Assembly: GCF_022846255.1 (NCBI RefSeq)
Contig: NZ_AP025682.1
Length of the DNA stretch: 64,000 bases
Origin: Escherichia coli
GTDB lineage: Bacteria > Pseudomonadota > Gammaproteobacteria > Enterobacterales > Enterobacteriaceae
Strand: one strand, 5' to 3'
Shown: one piece after another, positions 3,582-32,492 of the stretch
Layout: the number at the start of each line of letters is the position of its first letter
How positions within the stretch are numbered: position 1 is the first letter of the stretch
The notes under the pieces: model-generated
What the model was told of the DNA's origin: nothing
Database searches by the model: none
Seen by the model: only the letters and a program-made list of their open reading frames with translations
Made by a program: the position numbers and the translations under genes

Positions 3582-3591
3582 AAGAATGAAC

Positions 3592-3626
3592 TACTGCCCC
3601 ATGTGGATATGGGGCAGGATTTTATT
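3592..3626. terminator. Hairpin between convergent genes (candidate bidirectional terminator)
   Basis: CTGCCCCAT...ATGGGGCAG stem followed by GATTTTATTG; sits between the stop of the regulator (+) and the stop of the transporter (-). Confidence 0.5.
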
Positions 3627-4626
3627 GATTAGCGGCGATAATAAGAACAATACCCACAATGTATGAAATAAACATAGTCAGCAGCAGTTTATTGGTTCCG
3701 GCTGGCGCACTGGCAAATTCTCTCCAGATGAAGACTCCCCAGATCACGGCAATCATTGTGGCACCCTGTCCCAGACCGTAGGAAATGGCATAACCCGCCT
3801 GACCAGACGCAATCAAACTGAATGCCAGACCGACACACCAAATCATACCGCCCAGCCAGCCGCAAACATGATCCCGTAAACTCCCGGAAAAATACATTTT
3901 CCTGTTGACAGGTTCTCCTGAAATAGGCTTTTTCATGACCAGCGTGTTAAGGACAAAGTTCGACAAAAACAGCCCCACGGCAAACAGAACAAGTGCTGAG
4001 TACGGCGTCATCAGACCGCTGGCAGGCTGGCTGAAATTGTCAGACATGGAGTCCGCCAGGAAGCGGAAAAACCATCCCATGATGATACCCGCAAGAATGG
4101 CAGTGATGAGGCCTTTGTTACGGCGAGATTTATCCGCCTCCTGCGTGACACGGCCATAGGCTATCGCGGTAAAAATAATGGCGATCACAACGCAGGCGAC
4201 ACCGAGGAACAGAATGAGCGGATCGCCCTGCGGATTGCCGATATAGGTGGTGATCACACCCAGAGCCAGTGCCAGCCCCACCCCCACAGGAAAAGCTACC
4301 GCCATACCGGCAAGATTAATAGAAGCCACCAGAAGAATATTGGAAATATTGAAGATAATCCCTGCCAGTATTGCCGACATCAGACTACTGTTGCTCGCCT
4401 GCTGAATATCAGGTATAAAGCTGCGACCGGCTTCGCCCATAGAACCCAGAGTGAAGGCAAATAACAAAGAACACAGCAATAATCCAATTGAATAATCCCA
4501 ATAGAATAGAGGGAACTCCCATTTTTTATTACTGACAAGTTTAGTTGTATTCGCCCATGAACCCCAGCAAATCATAGTAATAAAACACATTATTATGGCG
4601 ACAGCATACGATTCCACGATAAACAT
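3622..4626 (-). CDS. Sugar transporter, DMT superfamily (GRP/RhaT/GlcU-like), about 10 TM helices
   Basis: 334-aa hydrophobic protein with two-half internal repeat architecture typical of RhaT/GlcU-type sugar permeases; last gene of the kinase-isomerase-aldolase operon. Confidence 0.7.
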   Translation of the reverse strand: MFIVESYAVAIIMCFITMICWGSWANTTKLVSNKKWEFPLFYWDYSIGLLLCSLLFAFTLGSMGEAGRSFIPDIQQASNSSLMSAILAGIIFNISNILLVASINLAGMAVAFPVGVGLALALGVITTYIGNPQGDPLILFLGVACVVIAIIFTAIAYGRVTQEADKSRRNKGLITAILAGIIMGWFFRFLADSMSDNFSQPASGLMTPYSALVLFAVGLFLSNFVLNTLVMKKPISGEPVNRKMYFSGSLRDHVCGWLGGMIWCVGLAFSLIASGQAGYAISYGLGQGATMIAVIWGVFIWREFASAPAGTNKLLLTMFISYIVGIVLIIAANQ

Positions 4627-4729
4627 AAATAACTCCTTGTGGTAGTTATAATCAATCGTTGTGGACAGAGGGCATAACAGCCATTCCTCGAATGGCTGTT
4701 ATATGTTATTAATTAAAATAAAGCTGTAA

Positions 4730-5371
4730 TTACGCTTTCAAACCATACGTTTTGAATTTTTCAAGAACGATGGTCATTTCGGCTTCAGACAGAACGGGAA
4801 CATCGTGATGTAATCCGCCACATTTGATGTATAAATCAGCCAGCGTCTCAGTTTCACCCGCCAGCCACAACGTCTTTTCCAGCGTGACGTCCATGGCCAG
4901 CATACCGTGGTGCTGCATCAGCAAGGACTTACTTTCTCTGATTCCTTGAGATACACTGTCGGCCAGTTCAGGGCTGCCAAAGGTATAATAGGGAATACAG
5001 GGAATATGATCCGTCCCCGATACCGCCACCATATAATGAATAGCCGGAATTGAATGATTATGTATTGCCACCGCCGTGGAATTCACCGCATGCGTATGTA
5101 TGACAGCATTCAATTCTGGTCTGGCTTTATAACACGCCAGATGAAATAGCCATTCACTTGATGGTATTTTACCCGCTTCAGGTATTCCCTTATCGTCTAC
5201 AAAGACAATCATGTCCGGCGTCATCTTTGAATAAGCGATCCCACTCGGTGTAATCAACATGCCACCGGTATATCTGGCACTCACATTACCTGATGTTCCT
5301 TGATTCAGACCTGACGCATTCATTTCCCGACAAATGGAAATGATATTTTCTGCTAACTTAATCCTTTCCAT
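4730..5371 (-). CDS. Class II (metal-dependent) aldolase, FucA/AraD fold; candidate 5-deoxyribulose-1-P / methylthioribulose-1-P aldolase
   Basis: 213 aa, class II aldolase/adducin-domain size and histidine-rich motifs (HTHAVNSTAVAIHNH); positioned downstream of the MtnA-like isomerase. Confidence 0.8.
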   Translation of the reverse strand: MERIKLAENIISICREMNASGLNQGTSGNVSARYTGGMLITPSGIAYSKMTPDMIVFVDDKGIPEAGKIPSSEWLFHLACYKARPELNAVIHTHAVNSTAVAIHNHSIPAIHYMVAVSGTDHIPCIPYYTFGSPELADSVSQGIRESKSLLMQHHGMLAMDVTLEKTLWLAGETETLADLYIKCGGLHHDVPVLSEAEMTIVLEKFKTYGLKA

Positions 5372-5401
5372 TACTGCTCCTTAACAGAAGTGATCGTCGT
5401 T

Positions 5402-6517
5402 TTAATGCAGCTCGTCCTGGAGTGCTTTACTCTTCAGGTCAGCAAACATATCCGCCAGAGCTGACTTACTGGCAGCACAGACTCCCCGTTCAGTAATGAG
5501 GCCGGTAATGTATCGGGCAGGCGTGACGTCGAAAGCGTAGTTCTCACAACGGGTTCCTTCAGGGGCGGTATTGACCCAGCTCAATTCTCCCTGAGTATTT
5601 ATCCCATAGACATGGGACTGCTCTTTTCCGTCACGTTGCTCAATCGGAATGGTTTTTCCGTCCTCGATAGTCCAGTCAATAGTGGGAGAAGGTAGCGCGA
5701 CGTAGAAGGGAACATGGTTATCATGGGCCGCCAGCGCCTTAAGATAGGTACCAATTTTATTACAGACATCCCCTCTGGCCGTGGTTCGATCGGTCCCCAC
5801 TATACAGAGATCAACGTCACCGTGTTGCATCAGGTGGCCACCCGCATTGTCGGCAATCAGGGTGTGAGGAATACCGTGTGAACCCAGTTCAAATGCCGTG
5901 AGTCCACCCTGATTACGTGGCCGCGTTTCATCCACCCAGACGTGAACAGGGATTCCGTTTTCATGCGCTTTATAGATGGGAGAAAGCGCGGTTCCCCAGT
6001 CTACGGTCGCCAGCCAGCCTGCGTTACAATGTGTCAGGATATTGACCACACTCCCGGCCGATTTTTTCTGGGCTATTTCGCGGATGACTTCTGCACCATG
6101 TAATCCAATTTGTTCGCACAACGCGACATCTTCCTCGGCAATTTCTGCCGCCAGCGCCCAGGCCACATCCTTGCGCTCTGATACACAGAGATCCTTCAGT
6201 GTGGCTATCATCCTGTCGAGAGCCCATTTGAGGTTAATTGCAGTTGGTCGGGTTTTGATAAGAAGGTCATAGTAACGCTGCAGACCTACGTCACTGGCAT
6301 TGTGGTTCATTCCCAGTGCGATACCATATGCCGCAACGACACCAATAAGCGGGGCGCCACGAACCCACATCTCCTGAATAGCCGCAGCGGCCATTTCCGC
6401 AGAGGTAAGCGCCACCACTTCAAACTTAAAAGGCAGCTTAGTCTGATCGATGATCTCTACCGCTTTTCCATCCCCGGAAACCCAGACCGTTCGGTAGTGT
6501 TTACCTTTAATATTCAT
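5402..6517 (-). CDS. mtnA: S-methyl-5-thioribose-1-phosphate isomerase family protein (eIF-2B alpha/beta/delta-like); candidate 5-deoxyribose-1-P isomerase
   Basis: 371 aa; translation shows MtnA/eIF-2B-type isomerase character; stop is 9 bp from the upstream kinase gene. Confidence 0.8.
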
Positions 6518-6526
6518 AATGACCTC

Positions 6527-7786
6527 TTACTTAACCTTCGCAGACTGGATGACGGAGTCCATATTTTTAAACTGGCGGGCATTGACAATAAGATCGCGCG
6601 CCATGGTCAATGCACGTCGTTCACATTCTGCGCGAAGCTCTGTATTTTCAATCTGTTTCAGCTCGGCAACGCCAGCAAAACCAATGATCCGGCGATTCAT
6701 TTCCATGCCGGCATTCACCAGGGAATCTTCAAGCAGCGTGGCAAAAAACTGATCCTGTGCGTCCTCAAGAGCGGCCCTGTTCTGTTGATACATTTCTGTC
6801 GGCCACGCGTCACCCTGTGTTTTGTTGTCCCAGAGCTGGCGGAACTCCCGGGTGAAAACTGACCAGGTGTGGACAATCTGCTGAAGTAGCCATTCCTGAT
6901 AGTCAGCGCGACGTTGCTCATTTGCATCCCACCCAGGGCGTGAGAAGAACGCCAGCAGGAGGTTGCCAATATAGTTGCCGATATCAAACGCCATTGGTCC
7001 CATGAAACCGAACTCCGGATCAATCACTTTGGTATCCGTGTCGGTCACCATGATTGAGCCTGAATGAAGGTCACCATGTAACAATGCCTGCGCTTCTGTC
7101 ATAAATTTGTACTTATAACGCATGGCAACCTGGAGCATCTCTACATCAGCCCAGGCCTTATGGACGGCATCGTCCAGCTCAGGAGAAGTCCAGTTATTCC
7201 GTTCCGCGTTGTAATAGGGCTCTGTGAAGATCAGATCTTCCGTAATTTTGCACAGCTCATGATTCAACGCGAACTCAGCAGTAAGCGCTTTTTTCTGTTC
7301 TGCTGACATGCCAATGTCAGACGTATTAAAGAGAGTCTGTGCTAAAAATCTGCCGATATCTTCAGCTAGCTTAGGGAATTTTTTACCGTTAATCAGTCCC
7401 TTACGCAGAATTACGTGAGGCGTCAAATACTCCATGGCAAACAGTGCCATTTCCGGGTCATAAAAATAGACCTGGGGAATCAGTGTGTGACCCGCGTACT
7501 TGGCTTCCTGACATAAGACGTTGTACTCAAAGCCCGCACGGCTCAGAGATAAAGGCCATCCTTCGCCCCCTGCACGAAGCCAGGGCAGAGCTTGTTTTAC
7601 AATGATGGTTTTATGTGTCCCCTTAACGATAAACACCATGTTCAGGTTTCCGTCCCCCACTTCTGAAACTTTCCACTCTTCTGGTAACCCTCCCGGTTCG
7701 CATGAAGGGGTCAGTCTGGACGAGAGATAACCAGGCAGCGTGTCACATGTCAGCGGCTTGTAACCTGATGGAATTGAATCCGTCAT
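6527..7786 (-). CDS. mtnK: Methylthioribose kinase family protein (MtnK-like); candidate 5-deoxyribose kinase
   Basis: 419 aa with the MtnK/aminoglycoside-kinase-fold catalytic motif HGDLHSGSIM and DPEFGFMGPMAFDIG; first gene of a kinase-isomerase-aldolase-transporter operon. Confidence 0.8.
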   Translation of the reverse strand: MTDSIPSGYKPLTCDTLPGYLSSRLTPSCEPGGLPEEWKVSEVGDGNLNMVFIVKGTHKTIIVKQALPWLRAGGEGWPLSLSRAGFEYNVLCQEAKYAGHTLIPQVYFYDPEMALFAMEYLTPHVILRKGLINGKKFPKLAEDIGRFLAQTLFNTSDIGMSAEQKKALTAEFALNHELCKITEDLIFTEPYYNAERNNWTSPELDDAVHKAWADVEMLQVAMRYKYKFMTEAQALLHGDLHSGSIMVTDTDTKVIDPEFGFMGPMAFDIGNYIGNLLLAFFSRPGWDANEQRRADYQEWLLQQIVHTWSVFTREFRQLWDNKTQGDAWPTEMYQQNRAALEDAQDQFFATLLEDSLVNAGMEMNRRIIGFAGVAELKQIENTELRAECERRALTMARDLIVNARQFKNMDSVIQSAKVK

Positions 7787-7810
7787 AACAGTTCTCCTTA
7801 TCTACACAGA

Positions 7811-7850
7811 ATGATAACTGACTTATCATATGGCAACTATACTTTATCAT
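7811..7850. promoter_or_regulatory. Candidate operator: palindrome ATGATAA-ctgac-TTATCAT plus a third TTATCAT half-site 13 bp away, 25-60 bp upstream of the mtnK-like start
   Basis: Read from sequence at 7811-7829 and 7843-7850, in AT-rich promoter region of the operon. Confidence 0.35.
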
Positions 7851-8291
7851 GTGTAAAGTAATTTGTGATGCATGTAGATTTTTTGAACTGGAGAAAATTA
7901 AAAATAATGTTGTATGGAGTCATGATCTTTACAGGAATTAGTAGGGTGCATTCCTGTTATTTATATAAAATTCATTGTATTACATAAAAATGACGGTGCT
8001 GCGCGGGGAATTGTCTCGGGCAATCTTAGACGAAAGGAAGTATTGAAGTGACAGAATAATCTACATTTTTTATACATGTGTATTTTTCTGTTGTCTTTTG
8101 TTTTTAGCGTATGGTGTTTTTATGCCGATGTCTAATAGACAGATAGATTCGAGGGCCAACAGCCCCATTATCATGATGGAGCAACAGAGGTGAGTCTAAC
8201 GTTTCCGTACTTCTTATCGATCGGCACTAACAATCCTTTGTGATAACGGTATTCCCACACAGAGAAACCCACGTACCTGAATAAAAAAAAG

Positions 8292-8720
8292 ATTACTGGT
8301 GTGGAAATGGGATTAACAGATTATGCCATCAAATCGGATGGTAATGAGGTCAATAATCCTCGTCATCTCATTAACGTCAACTGTAATCTGCGACGCAAAT
8401 TAGCCAGCATGATGAATAATAAACACAATCTGGCAAGAGCGTTAGGTGATGCTGATTGGCACGGCTTTATCAACAAACTGGAGTACAAGGCAGCCGAAAA
8501 AGGCGTTCATCTGGTAAAAATCGACCAGTAGTTTGTCTGTTCGAAAAGCTGCTATTGTTGTGGTTACAAAATGTTGCTTCAAAAACGGATCTGGCGATGC
8601 CCTGAATGCGGTGTTGAACATGACCGGGATATAAATGCGGCAATCAACATAAAACTTAAAGACATACAGGAATTAAAGGCGGCGGGCCCCGTCGTCTCTG
8701 TCTATGGAGGAGCTGCGTAA
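8292..8720 (+). pseudogene. IS200/IS605-family TnpB (RNA-guided nuclease) remnant: C-terminal fragment with internal frameshift/deletion
   Basis: Translation ITGVEMGLTDYAIKSDG...ARALGDADWHGFINKLEYKAAEKGVHLVKID matches the TnpB RuvC region; the zinc-finger segment RCPECGVEHDRDINAAINI follows in another frame; N-terminal ~200 aa absent. Confidence 0.6.
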
Positions 8721-8984
8721 ACCCGTCGTACAGACGGTTGCAGCCTGAAAAGTGGGAAGGCCTTGCCCGATTGGGCGGGGAGTAGTCACCCTTGGAGTCA
8801 TTTTTATCCGGTGTATTAATATGCTCCTAATAGTTAATCTGGTTATAATATTTTTTTTTTGATTATGATCACGAAAATATCTCGGTTTTTATTTGCAAAA
8901 CTTGAAACGTGAATCCAAAAAAGATAAATATTTGTCCGCAGTGACTTCTTTTCTGTTGAAAAGTTCAATCTAAAGGGCAAAAAA

Positions 8985-10097
8985 ATGAAAAAAATTACAG
9001 TGGCACTTTCTGTGGTTGCGGCATCTGTTCTGATGGCAATGTCTGCACAAGCGGCAGAAATCTATAACAAAGACGGTAACAAACTGGATCTGTACGGCAA
9101 AGTTAATGCAGAGCATTACTTCTCTTCTTCAGCTAGTGATGACGGGGATAAAACTTATGCTCGTATGGGTTTCAAAGGTGAAACTCAGATTAATGACCAG
9201 TTAACCGGTTTTGGTCAGTGGGAGTACGAATTTAAAGGTAACCGTACTGAAACTGAAGGTTCTGATAAAGATAAAACTCGTCTTGCGTTTGCAGGGCTTC
9301 GCTTTGGCGATTATGGTTCGCTCGACTATGGTCGCAACTACGGTGTAGCTTATGATGTTGGCGCTTGGACTGACGTGCTGCCGGAGTTTGGTGGAGATAC
9401 CTGGACTCAGACTGATGTATTTATGACCCAGCGTGCTACTGGCGTAGCGACCTATCGTAACAATGATTTCTTCGGCTTGGTTGATGGTCTGAACTTTGCT
9501 TTGCAGTATCAAGGTAAAAATGATAGTGCTGCAAAAGTGAATAACTGGAAAGGCCGTGACGAAGTTGAATCTAATGGTGATGGCTTTGGTCTGTCAGCTA
9601 CTTACGATTATGAGGGATTTGGCGTTGCTGCAACCTATGCAAAATCTGACCGTACTGATGGGCAGGTATCCTATGCTAAAGACAGCCCTCTGAATGCCTC
9701 TGGTAAAACTGCTGAAGTATGGGCTACGGGCCTGAAATATGATGCAAACAACATTTACCTGGCTGCAACTTATTCTGAAACTCAGAATATGACAGTCTTC
9801 GGTGATGACCATATCGCAAACAAAGCGAAAAACTTTGAAGCTGTTGCTCAATACCAGTTTGATTTCGGCTTGCGTCCGTCCATCGCTTACCTACACTCTC
9901 GCGGTGAAAATATTGGTGCGTTCGGTAACCAGGATCTAGTTGAATACATCGACGTAGGTGCGACTTATTACTTCAACAAAAATATGTCCGCTTTCGTTGA
10001 CTACAAGATCAACCTGATTGATGAAAGTGAATTTACCAAAGCATCTGAGGTTGCAACCGACAACATCGTTGCTGTTGGTATGACCTACCAATTCTAA
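8985..10097 (+). CDS. General bacterial porin, OmpC/OmpF/PhoE (GBP) family, divergent paralogue
   Basis: 370 aa; signal peptide ending [20 protein letters not shown], internal [25 protein letters not shown]-terminal YQF typical of 16-strand porins. Confidence 0.9.
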
Positions 10098-10253
10098 TTT
10101 TGGTAGGTAAGAATATGCGGGAAGGGAGTGATGTCACTGCCCGCATATAGGTGGCACCCTCATGCCACCTTTGAAGAGGCAATTTTATTGCCTCTTCTCA
10201 ATTTAACTTCATGTTATTTATTACCCTTTTATTGATTTGAAACTCTATTGTTG

Positions 10254-22036: not shown

Positions 22037-22609
22037 AGAGAATGGGTATTGTATTCAATTAGTTTAGGAGCTTAAGCTATCGGGGGTAATGCTGATTTAT
22101 TGGCAGTTGTGTACGTATTAGCGCTGCTTTTGCCGTAATACCCAGTAGTTCTTTCCAGCATAACTACAACTGAATGATACCAAAAATACATCTCAAGCTT
22201 TTTATCTTAGTCTTTCTATGATGACAATATTGAAAACTTCAGGATAATTAAAAGGTTAGTATTAATGAAAGTCCTTACATTTAAGCATCTTCTCTCTAAA
22301 CATATTTTCCTTAGAATCGGGGGCCTCAGTATTTAAAATCTTCCAGAGGTGTAATATTCAGCTTTGCTGTGACAACATCGAGAATGGTAAAAATTGATAA
22401 TATATCCTCTGAATATCAGGATGACTACGTTATAATGTATATGAGTTGGATTTGATTAGTTTCAAGGAAAGTGAAATGTGTGAAATAAGTACCAGACCAG
22501 TAGAACAGTAATTAAATACCGGAAAGCAAAGGGGGGAGGGGCGTGCTGACTGCATCTAAAATGAGACTATTACGCCCAGACATAGAGGGAAATAGCCAGT
22601 AGAGTACTT

Positions 22610-23386
22610 TTATTTGTTGGGGGGGGCCTGCTGATCCGTTTCACCAGTTGAGTTTGCAGCTGGAAGTTCTTTTGTCTTTGCTGTATCAATTGATTTGATT
22701 TGTTCGATGGCAGTTATATTACCTGACATTGCTTCATTGAGCACTTCTACTGCCCTACGGGCATCACGATCCTTGATCGACATGTAGACCTTGATATGAG
22801 CTTCCACACTCTCTAGGGTGATACCTAGCGCACGGTTAAGCTCTTCAAGATAGTAGTAATAGATGTCTTTAATCGAGTTCATCACGTTATAGAACACGCT
22901 GTTGTGTGATGCTCTGACTATTGCCAGATGGAACTCGTAATCCGCTTCCGAATACTTTTTGTAGTCCCCCTTATTGATCAACATATTATTCAGAGCTTCT
23001 TCGAGCTGGCGAATGTCGTCGTCGGTGGCGTGAGTGACAGCGAGTTCCACGCATTTGAACTCCACGGTCTGACGGAAAATCATCATATCGTGAAACTCTT
23101 CGCGGCTAAGGTGCATGATAGGACGTGGATCGTTACTCAACATTTGCGGGGTGAAGTTTGTGCTCACGTAGCTGCCACAGCCCTGACGTGTCACAACAAT
23201 CCCCAAGGTGCGAAAGCGCTGAACCGCACTACGTACACTGACCCGGCTTACATTAAATGAGTTGGCCAGCTCTAATTCTGAGGGCAAACGGCTACCTGGT
23301 GGCCAGCTGCCGTCCAGCAGTTTTCCACTTATTTGATCATAAACTTCATTTACAACATTCTGTTTCTGAATGGATTTTATGCTCAA
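22610..23386 (-). CDS. GntR-family regulator (FadR subfamily, FCD effector domain)
   Basis: 258 aa; N-terminal GntR winged HTH (LPSELELANSFNVSRVSVRSAVQRFRTLGIVVTRQGCGSYV); C-terminal codons include an 8-nt homopolymer. Confidence 0.85.
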   Translation of the reverse strand: MSIKSIQKQNVVNEVYDQISGKLLDGSWPPGSRLPSELELANSFNVSRVSVRSAVQRFRTLGIVVTRQGCGSYVSTNFTPQMLSNDPRPIMHLSREEFHDMMIFRQTVEFKCVELAVTHATDDDIRQLEEALNNMLINKGDYKKYSEADYEFHLAIVRASHNSVFYNVMNSIKDIYYYYLEELNRALGITLESVEAHIKVYMSIKDRDARRAVEVLNEAMSGNITAIEQIKSIDTAKTKELPAANSTGETDQQAPPNK

Positions 23387-23464
23387 GATGGGGTCCGAAG
23401 TCAGTTTAGATAAGCCAATAATATATCATCTTTAAAATCAAAGCGCCCAAGTGGGCGCCCTATA

Positions 23465-24751
23465 TTAACAAGTTTGTGCTTTTGCTTCAGTGGATTTTTT
23501 AGTGCTAAACGAGGTGAGTGAGGTGAGCAACACTGCCACAACCAGCGAAGCACTCATAAAGACATAAGAAGCACCTGGATCGCCCGTTAATCCATTCAGA
23601 TAACCGACAATCCATGAACCAACGAATGAGCCCAGAGCACCGAAACTTACGATAAATGCCATCGCACCAGCCATCACATTACGAGGGATAATTTCTGGTA
23701 TTGCGGCAAAGAATGGTCCGTAAGGTGTATACATCGCGCCACCTGCAACCATCAACAGGATATACGAGAGCCAAAAGTTGGATTCTCCAACGGTAAACGA
23801 ACCAATAAAGCAGAACGCACCCAATCCTAAAAACAGAAGAACAATGATTTTACGGTTCATAAATTTATCTGAATACCAAGACGCGCCGAGCATAAGTGAT
23901 ACAGCTAATAAGTAGGGTGCTGCTGATAGCCAACCTATTGCTACGATGCTTAATTCAGATGCTGATTTCAAAATAGACGGTAGCCACATAATAAATCCAT
24001 ACATCCCAATATTCCAGAAGAAGTGGATAAATGAGAGTGATAAGACTTTGCCTGAACGAAATGCTTCGCTGTAGTTTTTAATTTCTTTAATATTGGTTTG
24101 CTCTGCCGCAAGTGCCGCTTCTATATCTTTTTTTTCGTGCTCTGTTAACCAGGTTGCATCTGTGGGGCGATCAACAAAGACAAACCACCAGATAACTGCC
24201 CAAATGATGGCAGGGATGCCTTCGATAATAAACATACCACGCCAGCCAAAGGAGTCCACGAGATAGCCTGATAGCACTGACATCCAGAGTACTGTTATGG
24301 GGTTGCCAAGAAAAAGGAAGGTGTTAGCTTTCGACCTTTCTTTCTTAGTGAACCAATGGCTCAGGAAAACAAGCATGGCAGGCATCACAACGCTTTCAGC
24401 CACGCCGAGTAAGAAGCGAATGACCGCTAGGACCTTAACGTCGTGGACCATGCCGGTCGCTGTCGCTAGTATTCCCCACAGAATTAAGCTCCAAAAAATA
24501 AGCTTCTTGGCACTTCTTTTTTCAGCATAAATCCCTCCAGGTACCTGAAAGAAAAAATATCCAAGGAAGAACAGTGCACCCAGTAGTGAGGAAATCCCTG
24601 GTGTAATATTGAGATCCTCAGCCAGACCGGAGGCAGCACCAAAGCCATAATTAGCGCGATCAAGATAGGCAAGGCTATACGTAATAAATGCCAGCGGGAT
24701 CAACTTACGCCAGCGAATCGGCGCTAATTTTTTATGTATATTCTGAACCAT
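23465..24751 (-). CDS. MFS transporter, anion:cation symporter (ACS) family (hexuronate/aldonate-type, ExuT/DgoT-like)
   Basis: 428 aa; N-terminal region LAFITYSLAYLDRANYGFGAASGLAEDLNITPGISSLLGALFFLGYFFFQVPGG typical of ACS-family sugar-acid permeases. Confidence 0.8.
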   Translation of the reverse strand: MVQNIHKKLAPIRWRKLIPLAFITYSLAYLDRANYGFGAASGLAEDLNITPGISSLLGALFFLGYFFFQVPGGIYAEKRSAKKLIFWSLILWGILATATGMVHDVKVLAVIRFLLGVAESVVMPAMLVFLSHWFTKKERSKANTFLFLGNPITVLWMSVLSGYLVDSFGWRGMFIIEGIPAIIWAVIWWFVFVDRPTDATWLTEHEKKDIEAALAAEQTNIKEIKNYSEAFRSGKVLSLSFIHFFWNIGMYGFIMWLPSILKSASELSIVAIGWLSAAPYLLAVSLMLGASWYSDKFMNRKIIVLLFLGLGAFCFIGSFTVGESNFWLSYILLMVAGGAMYTPYGPFFAAIPEIIPRNVMAGAMAFIVSFGALGSFVGSWIVGYLNGLTGDPGASYVFMSASLVVAVLLTSLTSFSTKKSTEAKAQTC

Positions 24752-24806
24752 GATGTTTTCCCATTTAATTACTGCAGTTCGTATAACGAATGTCAGTAGA
24801 TGTTAA

Positions 24807-25574
24807 TTACAGCACCGCGAGCCACCCACCATCAACGTAAATAATTTGTCCATTGATATAATCTGATGCTTTGGATGATAAGAAGATGGCAGTTCCGATG
24901 AGTTCCTCTGGATGTCCCCAACGTTGGGACGGGTTGCTGTTTTTCACCCAAGAATCGAAGTGTTTGTCTTCGATAAGCGCAGTGTTCATGTCGGTGAGAA
25001 TGTAGCCCGGTCCAATGGCATTGGTCTGAATATTAAACTGTGCCCATTCTGCGGCCATTGAACAGGTAAGCATTTTGATGCCGCCTTTTGCTGCCGTGTA
25101 TGGAGCAACTGTTGGACGTGCGGCCTGGCTAGTGAGTGAACCGATATTAATGATTTTGCCACCGCGTTTATGGTCAATCATCCGCTTTGCCGCCGCGCGG
25201 GACACGAGAAATGCACTAGTTAAGTTCGTGTCGATCACCTTCTGCCAGTTTTCCAACTCCAGTTCAACCATCGGTTTGCGGTACTGAATACCAGCGTTAT
25301 TAATCAGGATATCAATACTGATCCCTTGCGCATCAAGTTGACTAAAAGCTGATTCAATCGCTTGTTCATTGGTGACGTCAAAAGCCACACCGTGCGCATC
25401 GTAACCCTTGCTTGTCAGAGACTTTACTGCTTCTGCCAGCAACGTGTCGCGAATATCATTCAGGATGACTCGAGCACCCGCAACGGCAAGTCCCTCTGCA
25501 TAGGCAAGGCCCAGTCCACGTGCTGCACCTGTTACCAACGCCGTTTTCCCCGTTAAATCAAATAAAGCGTTCAT
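24807..25574 (-). CDS. SDR-family oxidoreductase, gluconate 5-dehydrogenase (IdnO/Gno)-like
   Basis: 255 aa; TGAARGLG cofactor motif, catalytic YTAAK, high similarity in pattern to IdnO/KduD-type dehydrogenases. Confidence 0.85.
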   Translation of the reverse strand: MNALFDLTGKTALVTGAARGLGLAYAEGLAVAGARVILNDIRDTLLAEAVKSLTSKGYDAHGVAFDVTNEQAIESAFSQLDAQGISIDILINNAGIQYRKPMVELELENWQKVIDTNLTSAFLVSRAAAKRMIDHKRGGKIINIGSLTSQAARPTVAPYTAAKGGIKMLTCSMAAEWAQFNIQTNAIGPGYILTDMNTALIEDKHFDSWVKNSNPSQRWGHPEELIGTAIFLSSKASDYINGQIIYVDGGWLAVL

Positions 25575-25909
25575 ATTGTTTCCTCATGCATTTGTGTTGT
25601 ATGACAACTACCTTTTAAAAGGTAGGGGGTTCGCTACGACAAAAGCAACAATGTGCCCATGAATTTGCAACATGGATCACAAATAGCTTTGTGCAATGAT
25701 TGATGGTCTTATTTAATTTATTGAATTATATGGTGTAATATTTATATTGATGAGCATGGTTTGATCACTGTCACAGAATGGCGTTCGCAACGATCACTTG
25801 CAAATGAAGCGTGATATAACAATGTTGGTTGTAGGACAACCTACATGTTGTGTTGTTCATAACGATATGGATATGGCATACGAGAAAATTACTGAGCTGA
25901 GGTGTAAAA

Positions 25910-27163
25910 GTGAGTAGCCTGAAAATAACTAACGTGAAGACGATTCTGACGGCACCAGGCGGCATTGATTTAGCGGTCGTGAAAGTCGAGACCAACGAGC
26001 CAGGACTATACGGGTTGGGATGTGCAACATTTACTCAGCGTATCTTTGCAGTAAAAAGCGCAATCGATGAATACATGGCACCTTTCCTGATTGGGAAAGA
26101 TCCTACTCGTATTGAAGATATCTGGCAGTCGGGTGCGGTGAGTGGCTACTGGCGTAGTGGTCCCATTATGAACAATGCGTTGTCTGGTGTGGACATGGCA
26201 CTGTGGGATATCAAAGGTAAACTGGCGGGGATGCCGGTTTATGACTTGCTGGGTGGCAAATGCCGTGATGGTATCCCACTATACTGTCATACCGACGGTA
26301 GCGATGAAGTTGAAGTAGAAGATAACATCCGTGCCAGAATGGAAGAGGGTTACCAGTATGTTCGCTGCCAGATGGGCATGTACGGCGGCGCGGGGACTGA
26401 TGACCTTAAACTGATCGCTACGCAGTTGGCGCGAGCGAAGAACATTCAGCCGAAGCGTTCGCCCCGCAGCAAAACGCCCGGTATCTACTTTGATCCGGAT
26501 GCCTACGCCAAAAGCGTTCCACGTTTGTTTGATCACCTGCGTAACAAGCTGGGATTTGGCATTGAATTTATTCATGATGTGCACGAGCGTGTCACCCCTG
26601 TGACCGCTGTTAACCTGGCTAAAACGCTCGAACAATATCAGCTGTTTTATCTTGAAGATCCGGTGGCACCTGAAAACATCGACTGGTTGAAAATGCTGCG
26701 TCAGCAGTCTTCCACTCCGATATCCATGGGTGAACTGTTTGTAAATGTGAATGAGTGGAAACCGCTCATCGACAATAAACTCATCGACTACATTCGCTGC
26801 CACGTGAGTACTATTGGTGGCATTACACCGGCGAAAAAACTTGCGGTCTACAGCGAGTTGAACGGTGTGCGAACCGCATGGCATGGGCCGGGCGATATTT
26901 CTCCGGTCGGGGTCTGCGCTAATATGCATCTGGACTTGAGTTCACCGAACTTTGGTATTCAGGAATACACGCCAATGAACGACGCGCTGCGTGATGTATT
27001 TCCGGGCTGCCCTGAGATTGACCGCGGTTATGCCTATCTGAACGAGAAGCCGGGTCTGGGGATTGAGATTGATGAAGCTAAAGCGGCAAAATACCCGTGT
27101 GAGGGTGGGATACCGTCGTGGACGATGGCGCGTACACCTGACGGTACTGCCTCAAGACCATAA
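25910..27163 (+). CDS. Enolase-superfamily sugar-acid dehydratase, D-mannonate dehydratase (ManD)/RspA-like
   Basis: 417 aa from GTG start with AGGTG RBS; mandelate racemase/muconate-lactonizing-enzyme fold character (MALWDIKGKLAGMPVYDLLGG). Confidence 0.8.
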   Translation: MSSLKITNVKTILTAPGGIDLAVVKVETNEPGLYGLGCATFTQRIFAVKSAIDEYMAPFLIGKDPTRIEDIWQSGAVSGYWRSGPIMNNALSGVDMALWDIKGKLAGMPVYDLLGGKCRDGIPLYCHTDGSDEVEVEDNIRARMEEGYQYVRCQMGMYGGAGTDDLKLIATQLARAKNIQPKRSPRSKTPGIYFDPDAYAKSVPRLFDHLRNKLGFGIEFIHDVHERVTPVTAVNLAKTLEQYQLFYLEDPVAPENIDWLKMLRQQSSTPISMGELFVNVNEWKPLIDNKLIDYIRCHVSTIGGITPAKKLAVYSELNGVRTAWHGPGDISPVGVCANMHLDLSSPNFGIQEYTPMNDALRDVFPGCPEIDRGYAYLNEKPGLGIEIDEAKAAKYPCEGGIPSWTMARTPDGTASRP

Positions 27164-27534
27164 GTAATGAAGGGCCCGGTTTGCAGTTGCCGGGTCTGTC
27201 TCCTGTTCCCAGAGTTTTATTTATCTTCATCACTTACAGAGAATGCTCAACATTTGCTAGTCTTTTCCTGTCCAGGTATCCAAAGTCTCCTCCCAAATAT
27301 CCTGGATACTGGCTTAGACAAAATGAGATTATATTTTATAGTAAATTATATCATAACAGCTTTTGTTAAGGATGCTGTGTAAGATAAGATATATGGGTTA
27401 GAGGCATATTCTTTTGCAATCAGGAAGAAGATAATCACTGATGTTATCGGATATGTAGTAGTATTCGGTATAGCTATTTAGAGAAATTTGTGCCACAATT
27501 TATTATAGAGTTTAAAGAAAAATATATTGAAAAT

Positions 27535-27560
27535 AAAATCCGGGCTATTGCCCGGATTTT
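27535..27560. terminator. Hairpin terminator just past the integrase stop (T-rich on both strands)
   Basis: AAAATCCGGGC-tatt-GCCCGGATTTT, flanked by T-runs. Confidence 0.6.
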
Positions 27561-27561
27561 A

Positions 27562-28824
27562 TTATTTTAATGGATTATTAATCTTTGCATATTCAAATGG
27601 ACTGATAAATCTTTCTCTATTTGCATCCAGAAAATCGGCCCACCATTGTAGCATCAGTCGACGTTCTTCCAGATGTTCTGCTTTATGAATGTAAGCAGCA
27701 CGTACACCATTACGCTCCTGATGGCTCATCTGACGTTCCACAGCATCGCGGGACCACAAACCTGATTCAATCAATGCACTGCACGCCATCGCCCGGAATC
27801 CATGGCCACAGACTTCCTGGGTTGTGTCATATCCCATAACCCTCAGGGCTTTATTTACGGTATTTTCGCTGATTGGTTTACGTGGGTCATGTGCCCCCGT
27901 AAAGATCAGACCATTTTCACCAGCCCATGTCTGAAGTTCTGTCAGTATGGCTACAGCCTGTTTGCTGAGTGGCACAAGATGTGGTGTTCGCATCTTGGAG
28001 CCTCGGTGTGAGAATTTTACGCCTGGCAGAGGTTCGCGTTCGGCTGGAATAGTCCACATGGCATTGTCAATATCAATTTCAGACCAGCGGGCATATCTGA
28101 GTTCACTGGAACGAATAAAAACCAGTAAATTCAGCATAACTGCCCGTCGGGTGACAGGCTGGCCTTTATAACCGCCAATACGCGACAGAAGTTCAGGCAG
28201 ACGTGAAAGATCCAGAGCTGGGCGATGCTGGCGTTTTACCGTAGTCAATGCACCAGCCATATCCAGAGCCGGGTTATATCTGATGATGCCAGACTGTACG
28301 GCATAACGCATTACAGCAGATATTCTTTGCTGCAGACGACTGGCGATTTCATAAATTTGTTTAGCTTCTGCAGCACGAACAGGGATAAGCAGGTCCGGGG
28401 TACTGAGTGTTGTGATATCCCGGTTGCCGATAAAGGGGAATACGTGTGTCTCGAGGCTTTTGAGTACTTTATCGCTGTGTGATTGTGCCCATTGTTTATT
28501 ACTGGCATGCCAGCGTCGTGCAATATGTTCAAAAGAGAGCTGTAAATCAGGGACTACTTTTTTAGCTCTTTTCTGTTCGCAAGGGTCAATCCCCTCCGAA
28601 ATCAGTTTTCGGGCCTCATCCCGTTTTGTACGAGCTTCGGAGAGAGAAACTTCTGGATACACACCAAGTGCCAGAGTCTTCTCCTTACCCAGAATACGAT
28701 AACGGAGACGCCAGTAACGGGAACCATTAGGATGAACCAGCAGGAACATGCCGGCCCCGTCAGTGAGTTTATAAGCCTTGTCAGTGGGCTTTGCAGCCCG
28801 GATTTTTGCGTCAGTCAGCGCCAT
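27562..28824 (-). CDS. int: Tyrosine recombinase, P4-type integrase (island integrase)
   Basis: 420 aa, MALTDAKIRAAKPTDKAYKLTDGAGMFLLVHPNGSRYWRLRYR... N-terminal arm-binding region typical of P4-like integrases; start lies 198 bp from the tRNA-Phe 3' end. Confidence 0.9.
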   Translation of the reverse strand: MALTDAKIRAAKPTDKAYKLTDGAGMFLLVHPNGSRYWRLRYRILGKEKTLALGVYPEVSLSEARTKRDEARKLISEGIDPCEQKRAKKVVPDLQLSFEHIARRWHASNKQWAQSHSDKVLKSLETHVFPFIGNRDITTLSTPDLLIPVRAAEAKQIYEIASRLQQRISAVMRYAVQSGIIRYNPALDMAGALTTVKRQHRPALDLSRLPELLSRIGGYKGQPVTRRAVMLNLLVFIRSSELRYARWSEIDIDNAMWTIPAEREPLPGVKFSHRGSKMRTPHLVPLSKQAVAILTELQTWAGENGLIFTGAHDPRKPISENTVNKALRVMGYDTTQEVCGHGFRAMACSALIESGLWSRDAVERQMSHQERNGVRAAYIHKAEHLEERRLMLQWWADFLDANRERFISPFEYAKINNPLK

Positions 28825-28980
28825 AGTTCAGCCTTCTGAATGCGTTAAAGAGGGTACAAATTCTGTCGAACTGGGGTATACCCGCAATTATACCCACACA
28901 ATGGGGTTGATGTGGGGGGAATCTGGTTGAGTTCGGTAGAATTGATTTGTAGGTAGAACGCTTAAATTGTGGCGTTCTGA

Positions 28981-29010
28981 AACGAAAAACGGACCTCCGT
29001 GGAGGTCCGT
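28981..29010 (-). terminator. Rho-independent terminator of tRNA-Phe
   Basis: On minus strand GGACCTCC-ac-GGAGGTCC followed by GTTTTTCGTT. Confidence 0.7.
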
Positions 29011-29021
29011 TGATATGAATT

Positions 29022-29097
29022 TGGTGCCCGGACTCGGAATCGAACCAAGGACACGGGGATTTTCAATCCCCTGCTCTACCGACTGAGCTATCCGGGC
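29022..29097 (-). tRNA. pheV: tRNA-Phe (GAA anticodon)
   Basis: Reverse complement reads GCCCGGATAGCTCAGTCGGTAGAGCAGGGGATTGAAAATCCCCGTGTCCTTGGTTCGATTCCGAGTCCGGGCACCA, the canonical E. coli tRNA-Phe. Confidence 0.95.
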
Positions 29098-29202
29098 AAC
29101 GGGGCGCATTAAACCTGATTCGCCTCGTCTCGTCAATCAAATTTCTTCAATTTAGTGCAGACTGCACAATCTATCATCACTTTGCCGCTATTGCACGCAT
29201 TG

Positions 29203-29910
29203 TCAGGCAAACCAGGCGGTCCAGGCGGCGGAAAGCGGCATTGCCAGAAGGAGTGCTGGAAGCATGTTGACCACCGGGAACATTTTAATGCCACAGATGC
29301 GTAATCCGGTTGCCAGCAGCAATAAACCGCCTACGGCGCTGAAGTCTGCCATCATCGACGGTGTGGTCAGCGGTAATATCAGCGCGGCAGCCCACGCCAG
29401 TGTTAACTGGATGATCAGTAATGGAATGCTAATCACCGACACCGCAATACCCAGCGAGCAGGCGAAGATCATCGCCGTAAAGAAATCAAGAAATGACTTG
29501 GCGATTAAAATACTTGGATCGCCGGTCATCCCTTCGTTCATCGCCCCGAAGATTCCGGTGCCGCTGGCGCAAAACAGGACAATAATCGCGACAAAATTCT
29601 GAATAAAAGATTCATGCGCTGGCTTCTTACGCGAGTGGTGAAACAGATTATGCGCTTTGGCGACCACTGTATTGACGCCTTTTTCCAGCAGACAAATTTC
29701 GCCGATTAATGCTCCGAGTAAGGTTGCTAAAACCATCGCCGGAAGGTTGGCGCATTTCACCACCAGTAAAATACCAATCCCCAGCGATGCCAGACCAAAA
29801 ATTGATGTCATGGAGACGCGGATACGTTCCGGTAAGCGTTGGCTAAGGAGTGCGCCGAAAACGCCACCCAGTAAGACTGCACTTGCGTTGATAAAAGGGC
29901 CGATGACCAC
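29203..29910 (-). CDS. yqgA: DUF554 inner-membrane protein YqgA
   Basis: 235-aa membrane protein in the position of yqgA beside the tRNA-Phe gene; conserved synteny. Confidence 0.9.
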
Positions 29911-30308
29911 AAGAGTTCCTGTTAGCTGTATTGTTTGATTTTCTTATTATGAACTTTTGGCGCCGTCGATGGCTTGTTTGTTCGCAAAGTCCTGGCTTGC
30001 ACGCTTTAGCGAAAGGTGCCATGATTGCGCGAATTTTCTCCTCTCTGTACGGAGTTTGCCCGATGCACGCCACCTCCTTACATTCTCTCGCTTATCGCCG
30101 TTTCGCGCGAAACTCTTCTCTTTTTATGCTACTGCTCATGCGGTGAAGTTAACGCACGCTCACTGCAGGACAACAGTAAAATCAGAGCGTTTCTGCTTTT
30201 ACTGATGTCTGGCGGTCGGAGCTGGTGACCAGTTTGACCCATATCTCATGGGGCAGGGTTTTCCACCTTGTCCGGTATTCTTACTTCCCCTAAACGGGTT
30301 TTGCGCTT

Positions 30309-32444
30309 ATGAAATCAATGAATATTGCCGCCAGTAGTGAACTGGTATCCCGACTTTCTACTCATCGCCGCGTGGTGGCGTTGGGAGATACTGATTTTAC
30401 GGACGTCGCGGCAGTCGTCATTACCGCTGCGGATAGTCGCAGTGGCATTCTTGCGTTGCTTAAGCGCACCGGTTTTCATCTACCGGTGTTTTTGTATTCC
30501 GAACATGCTGTTGAATTACCTGCGGGCGTTACGGCGGTAATCAACGGCAACGAGCAGCAGTGGCTGGAGCTGGAATCCGCAGCCTGTCAGTATGAAGAGA
30601 ATTTGCTGCCACCGTTTTATGACACGCTGACGCAGTACGTTGAGATGGGTAATAGCACCTTTGCTTGCCCTGGACATCAACATGGTGCGTTCTTTAAAAA
30701 GCATCCTGCCGGACGCCATTTTTACGATTTCTTTGGCGAGAACATCTTTCGCGCCGATATGTGTAACGCTGACGTAAAATTGGGCGATCTGCTTATTCAT
30801 GAAGGATCGGCGAAAGATGCGCAGAAATTTGCAGCCAAAGTCTTTCATGCCGATAAAACCTATTTTGTGCTGAACGGCACATCGGCAGCGAATAAAGTGG
30901 TGACGAATGCGCTGTTAACGCGTGGCGATCTGGTGCTCTTCGACCGTAACAACCATAAGTCGAATCATCATGGCGCGTTGATTCAGGCGGGGGCGACGCC
31001 GGTCTATCTGGAAGCTTCACGTAACCCGTTTGGTTTCATTGGCGGTATTGATGCGCACTGTTTTAATGAAGAGTATCTGCGCCAGCAAATTCGCGACGTT
31101 GCGCCAGAAAAAGCCGACCTGCCGCGCCCGTTTCGCCTGGCGATTATTCAGCTGGGAACCTATGACGGCACTGTCTATAACGCCCGTCAGGTGATCGATA
31201 CCGTTGGGCATCTGTGTGATTACATTCTGTTTGATTCCGCGTGGGTCGGTTACGAACAGTTTATCCCGATGATGGCGGATAGCTCGCCGCTGCTGTTAGA
31301 ACTTAACGAAAACGATCCGGGGATCTTTGTGACTCAGTCGGTGCACAAACAGCAGGCGGGATTCTCACAGACGTCGCAGATCCATAAAAAAGATAACCAT
31401 ATCCGTGGACAGGCGCGTTTTTGCCCGCATAAGCGGTTGAATAATGCCTTTATGCTCCATGCTTCTACCAGCCCGTTCTATCCGCTGTTCGCCGCCCTGG
31501 ACGTTAACGCCAAAATTCATGAAGGGGAGAGTGGGCGTCGGCTGTGGGCTGAGTGCGTTGAGTTGGGTATTGAGTCGCGCAAGGCTATTCTTGCGCGCTG
31601 TAAGCTGTTCCGCCCGTTTATCCCGCCCGTTGTTGATGGCAAATTGTGGCAGGATTATCCGACGTCAGTGTTAGCCAGCGACCGCCGTTTTTTCAGTTTT
31701 GAGCCGGGGGCGAAGTGGCACGGCTTTGAAGGATATGCCGCGGATCAGTATTTTGTTGATCCGTGCAAGCTGTTACTCACCACGCCGGGTATCGATGCCG
31801 AAACCGGCGAATATAGCGATTTTGGCGTTCCAGCGACGATTCTGGCGCACTATCTGCGTGAGAACGGCATTGTGCCGGAGAAGTGCGATCTCAACTCCAT
31901 TCTGTTCTTATTAACTCCGGCGGAAAGCCACGAGAAGCTGGCACAACTGGTGGCGATGCTGGCGCAGTTTGAACAGCATATTGAGGATGATTCGCCGCTG
32001 GCTGAGGTGTTGCCGAGCGTTTATAACAAATATCCGGTGCGCTATCGCGACTACACCCTGCGCCAGTTGTGTCAGGAGATGCACGATCTGTATGTCAGTT
32101 TCGACGTCAAAGACCTACAAAAAGCGATGTTCCGCCAGCAGAGTTTCCCGTCAGTGGTGATGAATCCCCAGGATGCGCATAGCGCTTATATTCGCGGTGA
32201 AGTGGAGTTGGTGCGGATTCGTGATGCCGAAGGGCGAATTGCGGCAGAAGGAGCGTTGCCTTATCCACCTGGCGTGCTTTGCGTGGTACCCGGGGAAGTC
32301 TGGGGTGGGGCGGTTCAACGTTATTTCCTTGCGCTGGAAGAAGGCGTGAATTTGTTGCCGGGATTTTCGCCGGAGTTGCAAGGTGTCTATAGCGAAACCG
32401 ATGCGGATGGCATGAAACGGTTGTACGGTTATGTGTTGAAGTAA
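30309..32444 (+). CDS. speC: Ornithine decarboxylase, constitutive
   Basis: 711 aa, MKSMNIAASSELVSRLSTHRRVVALGDTDF...; fold-type I PLP decarboxylase. Confidence 0.95.
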   Translation: MKSMNIAASSELVSRLSTHRRVVALGDTDFTDVAAVVITAADSRSGILALLKRTGFHLPVFLYSEHAVELPAGVTAVINGNEQQWLELESAACQYEENLLPPFYDTLTQYVEMGNSTFACPGHQHGAFFKKHPAGRHFYDFFGENIFRADMCNADVKLGDLLIHEGSAKDAQKFAAKVFHADKTYFVLNGTSAANKVVTNALLTRGDLVLFDRNNHKSNHHGALIQAGATPVYLEASRNPFGFIGGIDAHCFNEEYLRQQIRDVAPEKADLPRPFRLAIIQLGTYDGTVYNARQVIDTVGHLCDYILFDSAWVGYEQFIPMMADSSPLLLELNENDPGIFVTQSVHKQQAGFSQTSQIHKKDNHIRGQARFCPHKRLNNAFMLHASTSPFYPLFAALDVNAKIHEGESGRRLWAECVELGIESRKAILARCKLFRPFIPPVVDGKLWQDYPTSVLASDRRFFSFEPGAKWHGFEGYAADQYFVDPCKLLLTTPGIDAETGEYSDFGVPATILAHYLRENGIVPEKCDLNSILFLLTPAESHEKLAQLVAMLAQFEQHIEDDSPLAEVLPSVYNKYPVRYRDYTLRQLCQEMHDLYVSFDVKDLQKAMFRQQSFPSVVMNPQDAHSAYIRGEVELVRIRDAEGRIAAEGALPYPPGVLCVVPGEVWGGAVQRYFLALEEGVNLLPGFSPELQGVYSETDADGMKRLYGYVLK

Positions 32445-32492
32445 GAATAAAAAAACGGGTCACCTTCTGGCGACCCGTTTTTCTTTGCGTAA

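Follow-up and report, generated by a model that had tools for sequence, protein, structure and literature searches.

The 64-kb window analysed here (the whole stretch of DNA under study, taken from the Escherichia coli contig NZ_AP025682.1, assembly GCF_022846255.1) carries a four-gene sugar-acid cluster at positions 22610-27163. Judged by sequence comparison, this cluster is an idnD-less sister allele of the hexonate cluster on the Salmonella genomic island ROD13, and not a copy of it. Its short-chain dehydrogenase/reductase (SDR) gene is the first of a three-gene operon that continues with a major facilitator superfamily (MFS) permease, here called MFS-A, and a GntR-type regulator, while the dehydratase gene is divergent. 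Open reading frames (ORFs) and family searches agree with a first-pass annotation of this DNA on the identities, coordinates and orientation of the four genes (three co-oriented, dehydratase divergent). We give a somewhat better than even chance to the reading that the cluster is an intact, self-regulated and horizontally mobile module for a six-carbon keto-aldonate or aldonate, feeding the 2-keto-3-deoxy-D-gluconate (KDG) route. The genes and the segment that distinguishes this allele are listed below, with the evidence for each in brackets.

22610-23386, minus strand: predicted GntR-type regulator, FadR subfamily, 258 amino acids, TTG start (ORF; Pfam GntR and FCD)
23465-24751, minus strand: MFS-A permease, 428 amino acids (ORF; NCBIfam, Pfam and PDB matches)
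23393-24813, unstranded: polymorphic cassette, here with MFS-A only (megablast breakpoints against the compared loci L087, L090, L091 and L093)
24807-25574, minus strand: predicted SDR oxidoreductase of the gluconate 5-dehydrogenase / 5-keto-D-gluconate reductase type, 255 amino acids (ORF; NCBIfam and PDB)
25910-27163, plus strand: predicted ManD-subgroup enolase-superfamily dehydratase, 417 amino acids, GTG start (ORF; Pfam and PDB)

The dehydratase contains the domains MR_MLE_N (PF02746, E 4.5e-21) and MR_MLE_C (PF13378, E 3.5e-42) and is identical at 404/416 residues (97.1%, 961 bits) to S. Enteritidis SEN1436 as deposited in PDB 3TW9. PDB 3TWA and 3TWB give the same 97.1% match, and 4IHC and 3T6C are nearly as close. 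The 12 substitutions relative to 3TW9 are conservative, and none affects an invariant position. With 406.1 bits against the NCBIfam ManD equivalog NF043051 (cut-off 550) and 399.5 bits against PRK15072, the 'D-galactonate dehydratase family' (cut-off 430), the protein is placed by its sequence within the ManD subgroup, but it is no ManD equivalog. Both the ManD subgroup and the general class of acid-sugar catabolism had been proposed in the first-pass annotation, and the domain and PDB matches bear them out.

In a MAFFT alignment of 83 dehydratase homologues (49-100% identity), the residues R152, D223, H225, E249, E275 and H325 are invariant (83/83) and align with R147, D212, H214, E238, E264 and H314 of RspA. 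Y158 is present in 68/83 homologues; MAFFT does not pair it with Y159 of RspA, the 150-180s loop differing in length, and we regard it provisionally as the likely loop tyrosine of the enzyme. According to Rakus et al. 2007, the ManD subgroup is said to use Asp/Glu/Glu as metal ligands and the histidine of the DxH motif as general acid. The general base in this subgroup is formed by an arginine at the end of strand 2 together with a tyrosine in the 150-180s loop, and there is no lysine set. Absence of the catalytic Lys/Asp/Glu/His set of the enolase superfamily had been named as the refuting case for the dehydratase. It does not apply: the six residues are invariant, and lysine does not belong to the set of the ManD subgroup.

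SEN1436 has been termed a putative D-gluconate dehydratase (PMC6458216), and the window protein is, on sequence grounds, its orthologue, of the D-gluconate dehydratase type and predicted to act on D-gluconate with KDG as product. The earlier statement that the substrate was open consequently needs to be narrowed: for the enzyme itself it no longer fully fits, whereas it stands for the physiological role. The dehydratase is also the most constrained gene of the set, showing 98% amino acid identity at 90% nucleotide identity. Wichelecki et al. 2014 reportedly characterized the Salmonella enzyme as a D-gluconate-specific, low-efficiency member of the ManD subgroup, with a kcat/KM of about 10-100 M-1 s-1, and are said to have rebuilt the sequence L-idonate to 5-keto-D-gluconate to D-gluconate to KDG in vitro. 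No growth or physiological phenotype was reportedly tied to the Salmonella enzyme in that work, and the pathway was called 'cryptic'.

The SDR is 90.2% identical to PDB 4G81, a 'putative hexonate dehydrogenase' of the SEN1435 type, and 46% identical to IdnO of E. coli K-12. Its best NCBIfam matches are the gluconate 5-dehydrogenase models, at 297-300 bits (below the cut-off of 408), and, 4G81 apart, the nearest relatives with a solved structure bear the name gluconate (5-)dehydrogenase. KduD is a close paralogue of the gluconate 5-dehydrogenases, and the SDR reaches 237-239 bits on the KduD models, as would be expected if it were KduD-like and acted on KDG / 2,5-diketo-3-deoxygluconate, with SDR and dehydratase converging on, or acting after, KDG. 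We consider this highly improbable: the gluconate 5-dehydrogenase models score higher, the names of the nearest solved relatives point the same way, no kduI-like gene lies nearby, and the idnD that accompanies the SDR in the sister allele agrees with a reduction of 5-ketogluconate. The SDR is kept in every idnD-less locus compared, and its role therefore appears to be independent of idnD. This retention constitutes the main argument in favour of a keto-acid as the entry substrate.

Comparing the cluster to previously described systems, the closest is that of S. Enteritidis, in which SEN1433 is idnD, SEN1434 a hexonate transporter, SEN1435 a gluconate 5-dehydrogenase and SEN1436 the dehydratase; SEN1433-5 form a putative operon divergent from SEN1436, and the cluster is cited as SEN1432-6 (PMC5428311). 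Its remaining gene, SEN1432, stands for a GntR regulator. Its island, ROD13, is restricted to Enteritidis and Gallinarum (PMC3282883). For all genes beyond the dehydratase and the SDR, the five-gene copies on E. coli IncF plasmids were used as representatives of the ROD13 type, no S. Enteritidis sequence being compared. The window cluster resembles ROD13 in its dehydratase (97.1%) and SDR (90.2%), in its divergent arrangement and in being island- or plasmid-borne, and it shares with the IncF copies a regulator of about 92% amino acid identity and conserved operator-like palindromes. In contrast to ROD13, it lacks idnD, so that entry from L-idonate would require host help; its transporter MFS-A is only 25% identical to MFS-B, the SEN1434-type transporter of the plasmid copies; and it lies beside a P4-type integrase at tRNA-Phe, a different place from that in Salmonella. 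The absence of idnD and of the SEN1434-type transporter, together with the different permease, is the main peculiarity of the locus, and it was overlooked by the first-pass annotation.

Both idnD and MFS-B, missing from the window, are present in the plasmid and sister alleles. In the sister allele, the idnD product scores above the cut-off of the NCBIfam L-idonate 5-dehydrogenase equivalog (577 versus 469 bits) and is 46% identical to K-12 IdnD. In the window, an IdnD homologue is absent from the interval between regulator and SDR, and the gap between regulator and MFS-A measures 78 bp. Among the E. coli islands at pheV and pheU whose dehydratase is identical, some have the MFS-A segment and others, in its place, a 2.6-kb segment with idnD and MFS-B, and megablast puts the breakpoints of this exchange at window positions 23392 (regulator start) and 24814 (SDR stop). 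All six genes occur together in Superficieibacter electus, in the order SDR, MFS-A, MFS-B, IdnD and GntR, opposite the dehydratase; its MFS-A is 89% identical to that of the window. By comparison of the sequences, a single contiguous deletion in this six-gene layout would give either E. coli form.

Among the eleven closest loci, regulator, SDR and dehydratase are present in 11/11, and idnD adjoins MFS-B in all seven loci that have idnD (7/7). The idnD-less core is combined with MFS-A in the window, in E. coli CH4784, on a K. oxytoca plasmid and in an Orbaceae genome, and with a TRAP transporter in Brenneria and Oceanobacillus. The regulator-SDR-dehydratase triad is accordingly, as far as the compared sequences go, an invariant core across Enterobacterales and Bacillaceae. 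An origin of the idnD-less form by a one-off deletion in this strain was considered and rejected: the same form is found in several E. coli assemblies, at pheV as well as pheU, and the four-gene form on the K. oxytoca plasmid, at 88% nucleotide identity, contradicts it too.

All four ORFs are intact, and pairwise dN/dS against copies at a dS of 0.4-0.85 ranges from 0.012 to 0.077, with the following values per gene.

Dehydratase: 0.012-0.022
SDR: 0.05-0.08
MFS-A: 0.07
Regulator: 0.06

The four genes are under strong purifying selection and are not decaying, which speaks against the non-functional locus that the first-pass annotation had named as a refuting case. Nevertheless, the four-gene form could be seen as what decay is leaving of the five- or six-gene cluster, non-functional or cryptic after the loss of idnD. 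Such a view could draw on the absence of idnD and MFS-B, on the Salmonella pathway having reportedly been called cryptic, and on the rarity of the cluster (7/5426 complete E. coli genomes, one of them with a chromosomal copy). It could also draw on the regulator: its ORF loses homology to all other cluster copies within the 3' end, at 22663-22666, and the window protein has an alternative C-terminal tail of ~19 residues at this module boundary. We judge decay quite unlikely, since the four ORFs are intact and conserved (dN/dS 0.01-0.08), the four-gene design recurs on the K. oxytoca plasmid and in Orbaceae, and the breakpoints coincide exactly with gene boundaries and disrupt neither the operon structure nor the operators. 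The altered tail lies past the FCD domain, which ends near residue 219, and SEN1433-6 is inducible in Salmonella (PMC5428311).

MFS-A belongs to the MFS_1 family, and its best NCBIfam match is TIGR00893 (2.A.1.14, the D-galactonate-transporter subfamily of the anion:cation symporter (ACS) family; E 1.9e-71), with 241 bits under the subfamily cut-off of 395. Together with PDB matches to sialin, the VGLUTs and DgoT, this places the protein by homology in the ACS family, and it is presumed to import the substrate of the pathway. Its identity to MFS-B of an E. coli IncF plasmid copy (SEN1434-type, 453 amino acids) is 24.6%.

The regulator matches PF00392 (GntR winged helix) and PF07729 (FCD), both above the gathering score, and is by these domains a member of the FadR subfamily of GntR regulators. 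It scores far below all named NCBIfam equivalogs. Between the SDR and dehydratase genes lies a control region, which was aligned across seven loci from six genera and holds the following elements.

25575-25909, unstranded: divergent control region, 335 bp (conserved blocks in the seven-locus alignment)
25597-25608, unstranded: operator-like palindrome 1, TTGTATGACAAC (TTGT-N3-ACAA; conserved in 7 loci)
25666-25681, unstranded: CRP-like site 1, TGCAACATGGATCACA (2 mismatches to TGTGA-N6-TCACA; putative)
25760-25775, unstranded: CRP-like site 2, TTTGATCACTGTCACA (1 mismatch to TGTGA-N6-TCACA; putative)
25812-25820, plus strand: extended -10-like element, TGATATAAC (6/7 aligned loci)
25829-25840, unstranded: operator-like palindrome 2, TTGTAGGACAAC (TTGT-N3-ACAA; conserved in 7 loci)

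Palindrome 1 lies 23-34 nucleotides upstream of the SDR start codon, and palindrome 2 is situated 9 nucleotides downstream of TGATATAAC and 70 nucleotides upstream of the dehydratase start codon. The palindrome cores, such as TTGTATGAC, are invariant in 7/7 loci, and a search of the window for TTGTANGACNAC with up to one mismatch returned these two palindromes and no other site. In Brenneria, Cedecea, Acerihabitans and Serratia (loci L004-L007), a third copy of the palindrome is found upstream of the regulator gene. In Acerihabitans and Serratia (L006 and L007), this palindrome-bearing regulator gene is divergently paired with MFS-A, and MFS-A is therefore counted in the same predicted regulon. 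We infer from this conservation that the two palindromes are candidate binding sites of the GntR regulator; their pattern would be the one expected for a FadR-type repressor of its own small regulon, MFS-A included. A perfect 7+7 palindrome, CTACCTTTTAAAAGGTAG (25608-25625), adjoins palindrome 1 and is partly conserved in other genera.

A scan of the region for two-hexamer promoters and terminators showed no enrichment over shuffles and missed TGATATAAC, and for this reason the promoter proposals rest on conservation across genera. TGATATAAC is presumed to be the extended -10 element of the dehydratase promoter; as it ends 9 nucleotides before palindrome 2, the operator would cover the transcription start. 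The spacer contains two CRP-like sites, against about 0.16 predicted by their density over the whole window. The half-sites of 25666-25681 are conserved across genera, and the centre of 25760-25775 lies about 60 nucleotides upstream of the likely transcription start of the dehydratase gene. These sites suggest that the cluster may be under catabolite control.

Based on these features, the proposed keto-aldonate module would work as follows. The regulator would bind the two TTGT-N3-ACAA palindromes and keep the dehydratase gene as well as the SDR-MFS-regulator operon repressed, until binding of an acid-sugar effector to the FCD domain relieves the repression. MFS-A would import 5-keto-D-gluconate (most likely) or possibly D-gluconate, the SDR would reduce 5-keto-D-gluconate to D-gluconate, the dehydratase would convert D-gluconate to KDG, and the KdgK and Eda enzymes of the host would finish its catabolism. 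The idnD-less allele could not start from L-idonate unless a host idnD supplied this step. The MFS-A substrate, the effector of the regulator, the functions of operators and CRP-like sites and the direction of flux are here assigned by inference. The utilisation capacity is not 'independent', as it had been called in the first-pass annotation: the cluster contains no kinase or aldolase and would rely on host KdgK/Eda or GntK. Uronate utilisation, which the same annotation had offered next to aldonate utilisation, was rejected, as the locus contains no isomerase, no uronate-type transporter and no UxuB/UxaB-type enzyme.

Ketogluconates arise from incomplete microbial oxidation of glucose. In addition, L-idonate and 5-ketogluconate are intermediates of the plant metabolism leading from ascorbate to tartrate (PMC12994016). 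A plant, ascorbate-derived source of 5-ketogluconate would fit the hosts of the close relatives, which are mostly plant- or insect-associated (Brenneria, Pantoea, Serratia plymuthica, Acerihabitans and Orbaceae).

Several points weigh against the keto-aldonate reading. The Salmonella enzyme is, following Wichelecki et al. 2014, reportedly of low efficiency and without phenotype. E. coli already handles D-gluconate by GntK/Edd and 5-ketogluconate by IdnO, which would make the route redundant. SDR and dehydratase both stay under the NCBIfam equivalog cut-offs, and the proposed substrate of MFS-A is deduced from gene content only. Moreover, SEN1433-6 responded to an egg-white model medium with a 5- to 33-fold induction (PMC5428311); this medium is not known to hold hexonates, which hints at another inducer.

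The same observations can be accommodated if the core triad serves another acid sugar, with gluconate dehydration and 5-ketogluconate reduction being weak side activities, and MFS-A, MFS-B and the TRAP systems importing different precursors of that substrate. The dN/dS of the dehydratase (0.012-0.022) is hard to square with an enzyme reported to be inefficient and dispensable, and the triad has been kept from Enterobacterales to Bacillaceae, at 74-75% amino acid identity, with three unrelated transporter types. Such a substrate could also account for scores that fall below the ManD and gluconate 5-dehydrogenase equivalog cut-offs and for an egg-white induction that is otherwise unexplained (PMC5428311). 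However, the sister idnD passes its equivalog (577 versus 469 bits), its product, 5-keto-D-gluconate, suits an IdnO-like SDR, and the three steps follow on from one another chemically, with KDG as the end product. We treat another substrate as a clearly less likely alternative to the 5-ketogluconate/gluconate reading.

The cluster type has already been described as ROD13 and both enzymes have structures at 90-97% identity, so that nothing about it is categorically new. With the GntII/idn system of E. coli K-12 (idnK, idnD, idnO, idnT, idnR) it has in common the 46% identical IdnO-like SDR and the 5-ketogluconate/gluconate chemistry, and the sister allele also has an IdnD (46%). It differs from GntII in lacking IdnK, IdnT and IdnR, in routing gluconate to KDG by an enolase-superfamily dehydratase and not to 6-phosphogluconate, in having an MFS transporter and not the GntP-family IdnT, and in a GntR/FadR regulator that is not of the type annotated for K-12 IdnR. 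These differences in gene content place the window cluster outside GntII.

The window dehydratase shares the ManD subgroup and the residues R, DxH, E, E and H with low-efficiency members of the subgroup (PDB 4IL2 and others), as represented by RspA/RspB of E. coli and by Chromohalobacter salexigens with its L-gulonate pathway. A further parallel is the theme of a low-efficiency dehydratase combined with dehydrogenases that interconvert aldonates. Unlike RspA, which is matched in PDB with 340.6 bits as compared to 961 for 3TW9, the window enzyme has a 150-180s loop of other length and sequence, and its partner is an SDR and not a Zn-ADH like RspB. The specificity of 3TW9-type dehydratases is presumably for D-gluconate and not D-mannonate, unlike that of RspA and the C. 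salexigens enzymes.

As in the DgoR/DgoT D-galactonate, UxuR/ExuR and LldR regulons, a FadR-type GntR regulator with FCD domain is found together with an ACS-family MFS importer and a dehydratase (of the enolase superfamily or other) that yields a 2-keto-3-deoxy acid. DgoR operators are short palindromes of the TTGT...ACAA type, like those in the window. In contrast to DgoR/DgoT, the cluster has neither kinase nor aldolase, its dehydratase is of another subgroup, and its regulator scores far below the named equivalogs.

Next, we consider the distribution of the cluster. The SDR-dehydratase pair was detected in 7/5426 complete E. coli genomes, once on the chromosome and six times on plasmids. 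The IncF plasmid copies represent an 86%-identical version with idnD and MFS-B between regulator and SDR, and their dehydratase has 98% amino acid identity to that of the window. An exact-sequence look-up of the window dehydratase protein gave hits in 129 blocks of public assemblies, among them one from a Hadza gut metagenome, and the exact protein is carried on E. coli islands at pheV and pheU, in the four-gene or the five-gene form. A P4-type integrase accompanies the cluster in islands at both sites. GCA_053993955.1, with the four-gene allele, is 99.76% identical to the window over 16911-36163, and GCA_023038895.1 is an example of the five-gene allele. In E. coli CH4784 (L001, 1-11628), RefSeq annotates the same four ORFs at 99.5% DNA identity; here the block of integrase and cluster is located at pheU, and beyond this block, ETEC-type tia, leoABC and a phosphoethanolamine transferase replace the cargo of the window. 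The same four-gene design is found on the K. oxytoca plasmid and in the Orbaceae genome.

A Tn3-family resolvase and transposase adjoin both the five-gene cluster of E. coli IncF (L002, 8817-12603) and the four-gene cluster of K. oxytoca (L084, 9574-13370), and the cluster may travel as transposon cargo. A search for Tn3-type terminal inverted repeats flanking the cluster found no convincing pair. The regulator-dehydratase-SDR triad also occurs in Oceanobacillus jeddahense (L011) and Metabacillus arenae (L012), at 7200-13000, one with a TRAP transporter and the other with a Zn-ADH and an MFS-B-like permease. These Bacillaceae dehydratases are 74-75% identical to the E. coli protein and thereby closer than many proteobacterial homologues, which suggests transfer between phyla.

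Beyond the dehydratase gene, the window shows the following features of the genomic setting.

27532-27563, unstranded: 14-bp perfect hairpin, terminator-like on both strands, between the dehydratase gene and the convergent integrase gene
27562-28824, minus strand: P4-type tyrosine integrase, the pheV island integrase
29022-29097, minus strand: tRNA-Phe (pheV), the island integration site

The position of the dehydratase next to an integrase on an island, as given in the first-pass annotation, is confirmed by these features. Beyond tRNA-Phe follow yqgA, speC, nupG and mltC with 99.9% identity to E. coli; the flanks being those of E. coli, the cluster occupies that end of an E. coli pheV island which lies next to the integrase. 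No direct repeat of the tRNA-Phe 3' end that would delimit a small island was found within the window at up to 3 mismatches. The tRNA is the single structured RNA that an Rfam search of 21900-29300 returned, and the spacer at 22037-22609 holds short, unsupported ORFs only.

The immediate left-hand neighbours of the cluster are genes for a CynX/NimT-type MFS transporter and, divergent from it, a TetR regulator (20050-22036), a pair that joins the cluster in several E. coli pheV/pheU islands (L086-L089, L092 and L093), and is not found with it in CH4784 or the plasmid copies. The left end of the window cuts an IlvD/Edd-family dehydratase, of which the C-terminal part remains (85-792), followed by a gene of the GntP-family gluconate:H+ symporter type (899-2248); 85-2248 is presumably the 'first' sugar-acid locus implied by the first-pass annotation, which had counted the present cluster as the second. 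Further genes encode a SorC/DeoR-type regulator (2595-3581), a sugar/ureide-permease-like membrane protein (3622-4626), a class II aldolase (4730-5371), an MtnA-type methylthioribose-1-phosphate isomerase (5402-6517) and an MtnK-type methylthioribose kinase (6527-7786). We take this set (2595-7786) to resemble the DHAP-shunt salvage module for 5'-deoxy-nucleosides of pathogenic E. coli. An extra OmpC-like porin gene follows at 8985-10097.

The island is interrupted by IS3-family transposase genes (10351-11205 and 18296-19509), which divide it into blocks. One block (11500-18288) encodes an MFS protein, a pepT-like peptidase T, an NhaC-type antiporter and a MalY/PatB-type aminotransferase, and many other E. 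coli genomes, all without the sugar-acid cluster, contain a 99.8% identical segment. As this block occurs elsewhere without the cluster, the island appears to be a mosaic of independently circulating modules.

Within E. coli, the cluster represents a rare accessory capacity that is carried on islands or plasmids. Its two cassettes between identical flanks offer a natural experiment on the role of conserved 'low-efficiency' dehydratases of the ManD subgroup, and the TTGT-N3-ACAA operators define a predicted regulon. A more far-reaching idea, which we consider rather unlikely, is that the triad constitutes a pathway for an unrecognised acid sugar, possibly plant- or ascorbate-derived, for which D-gluconate is a poor surrogate. 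If this were true, the polymorphism between the MFS-A cassette and the IdnD plus MFS-B cassette would act as a naturally occurring switch from one entry substrate to another, and would provide a genetic handle on the true one.

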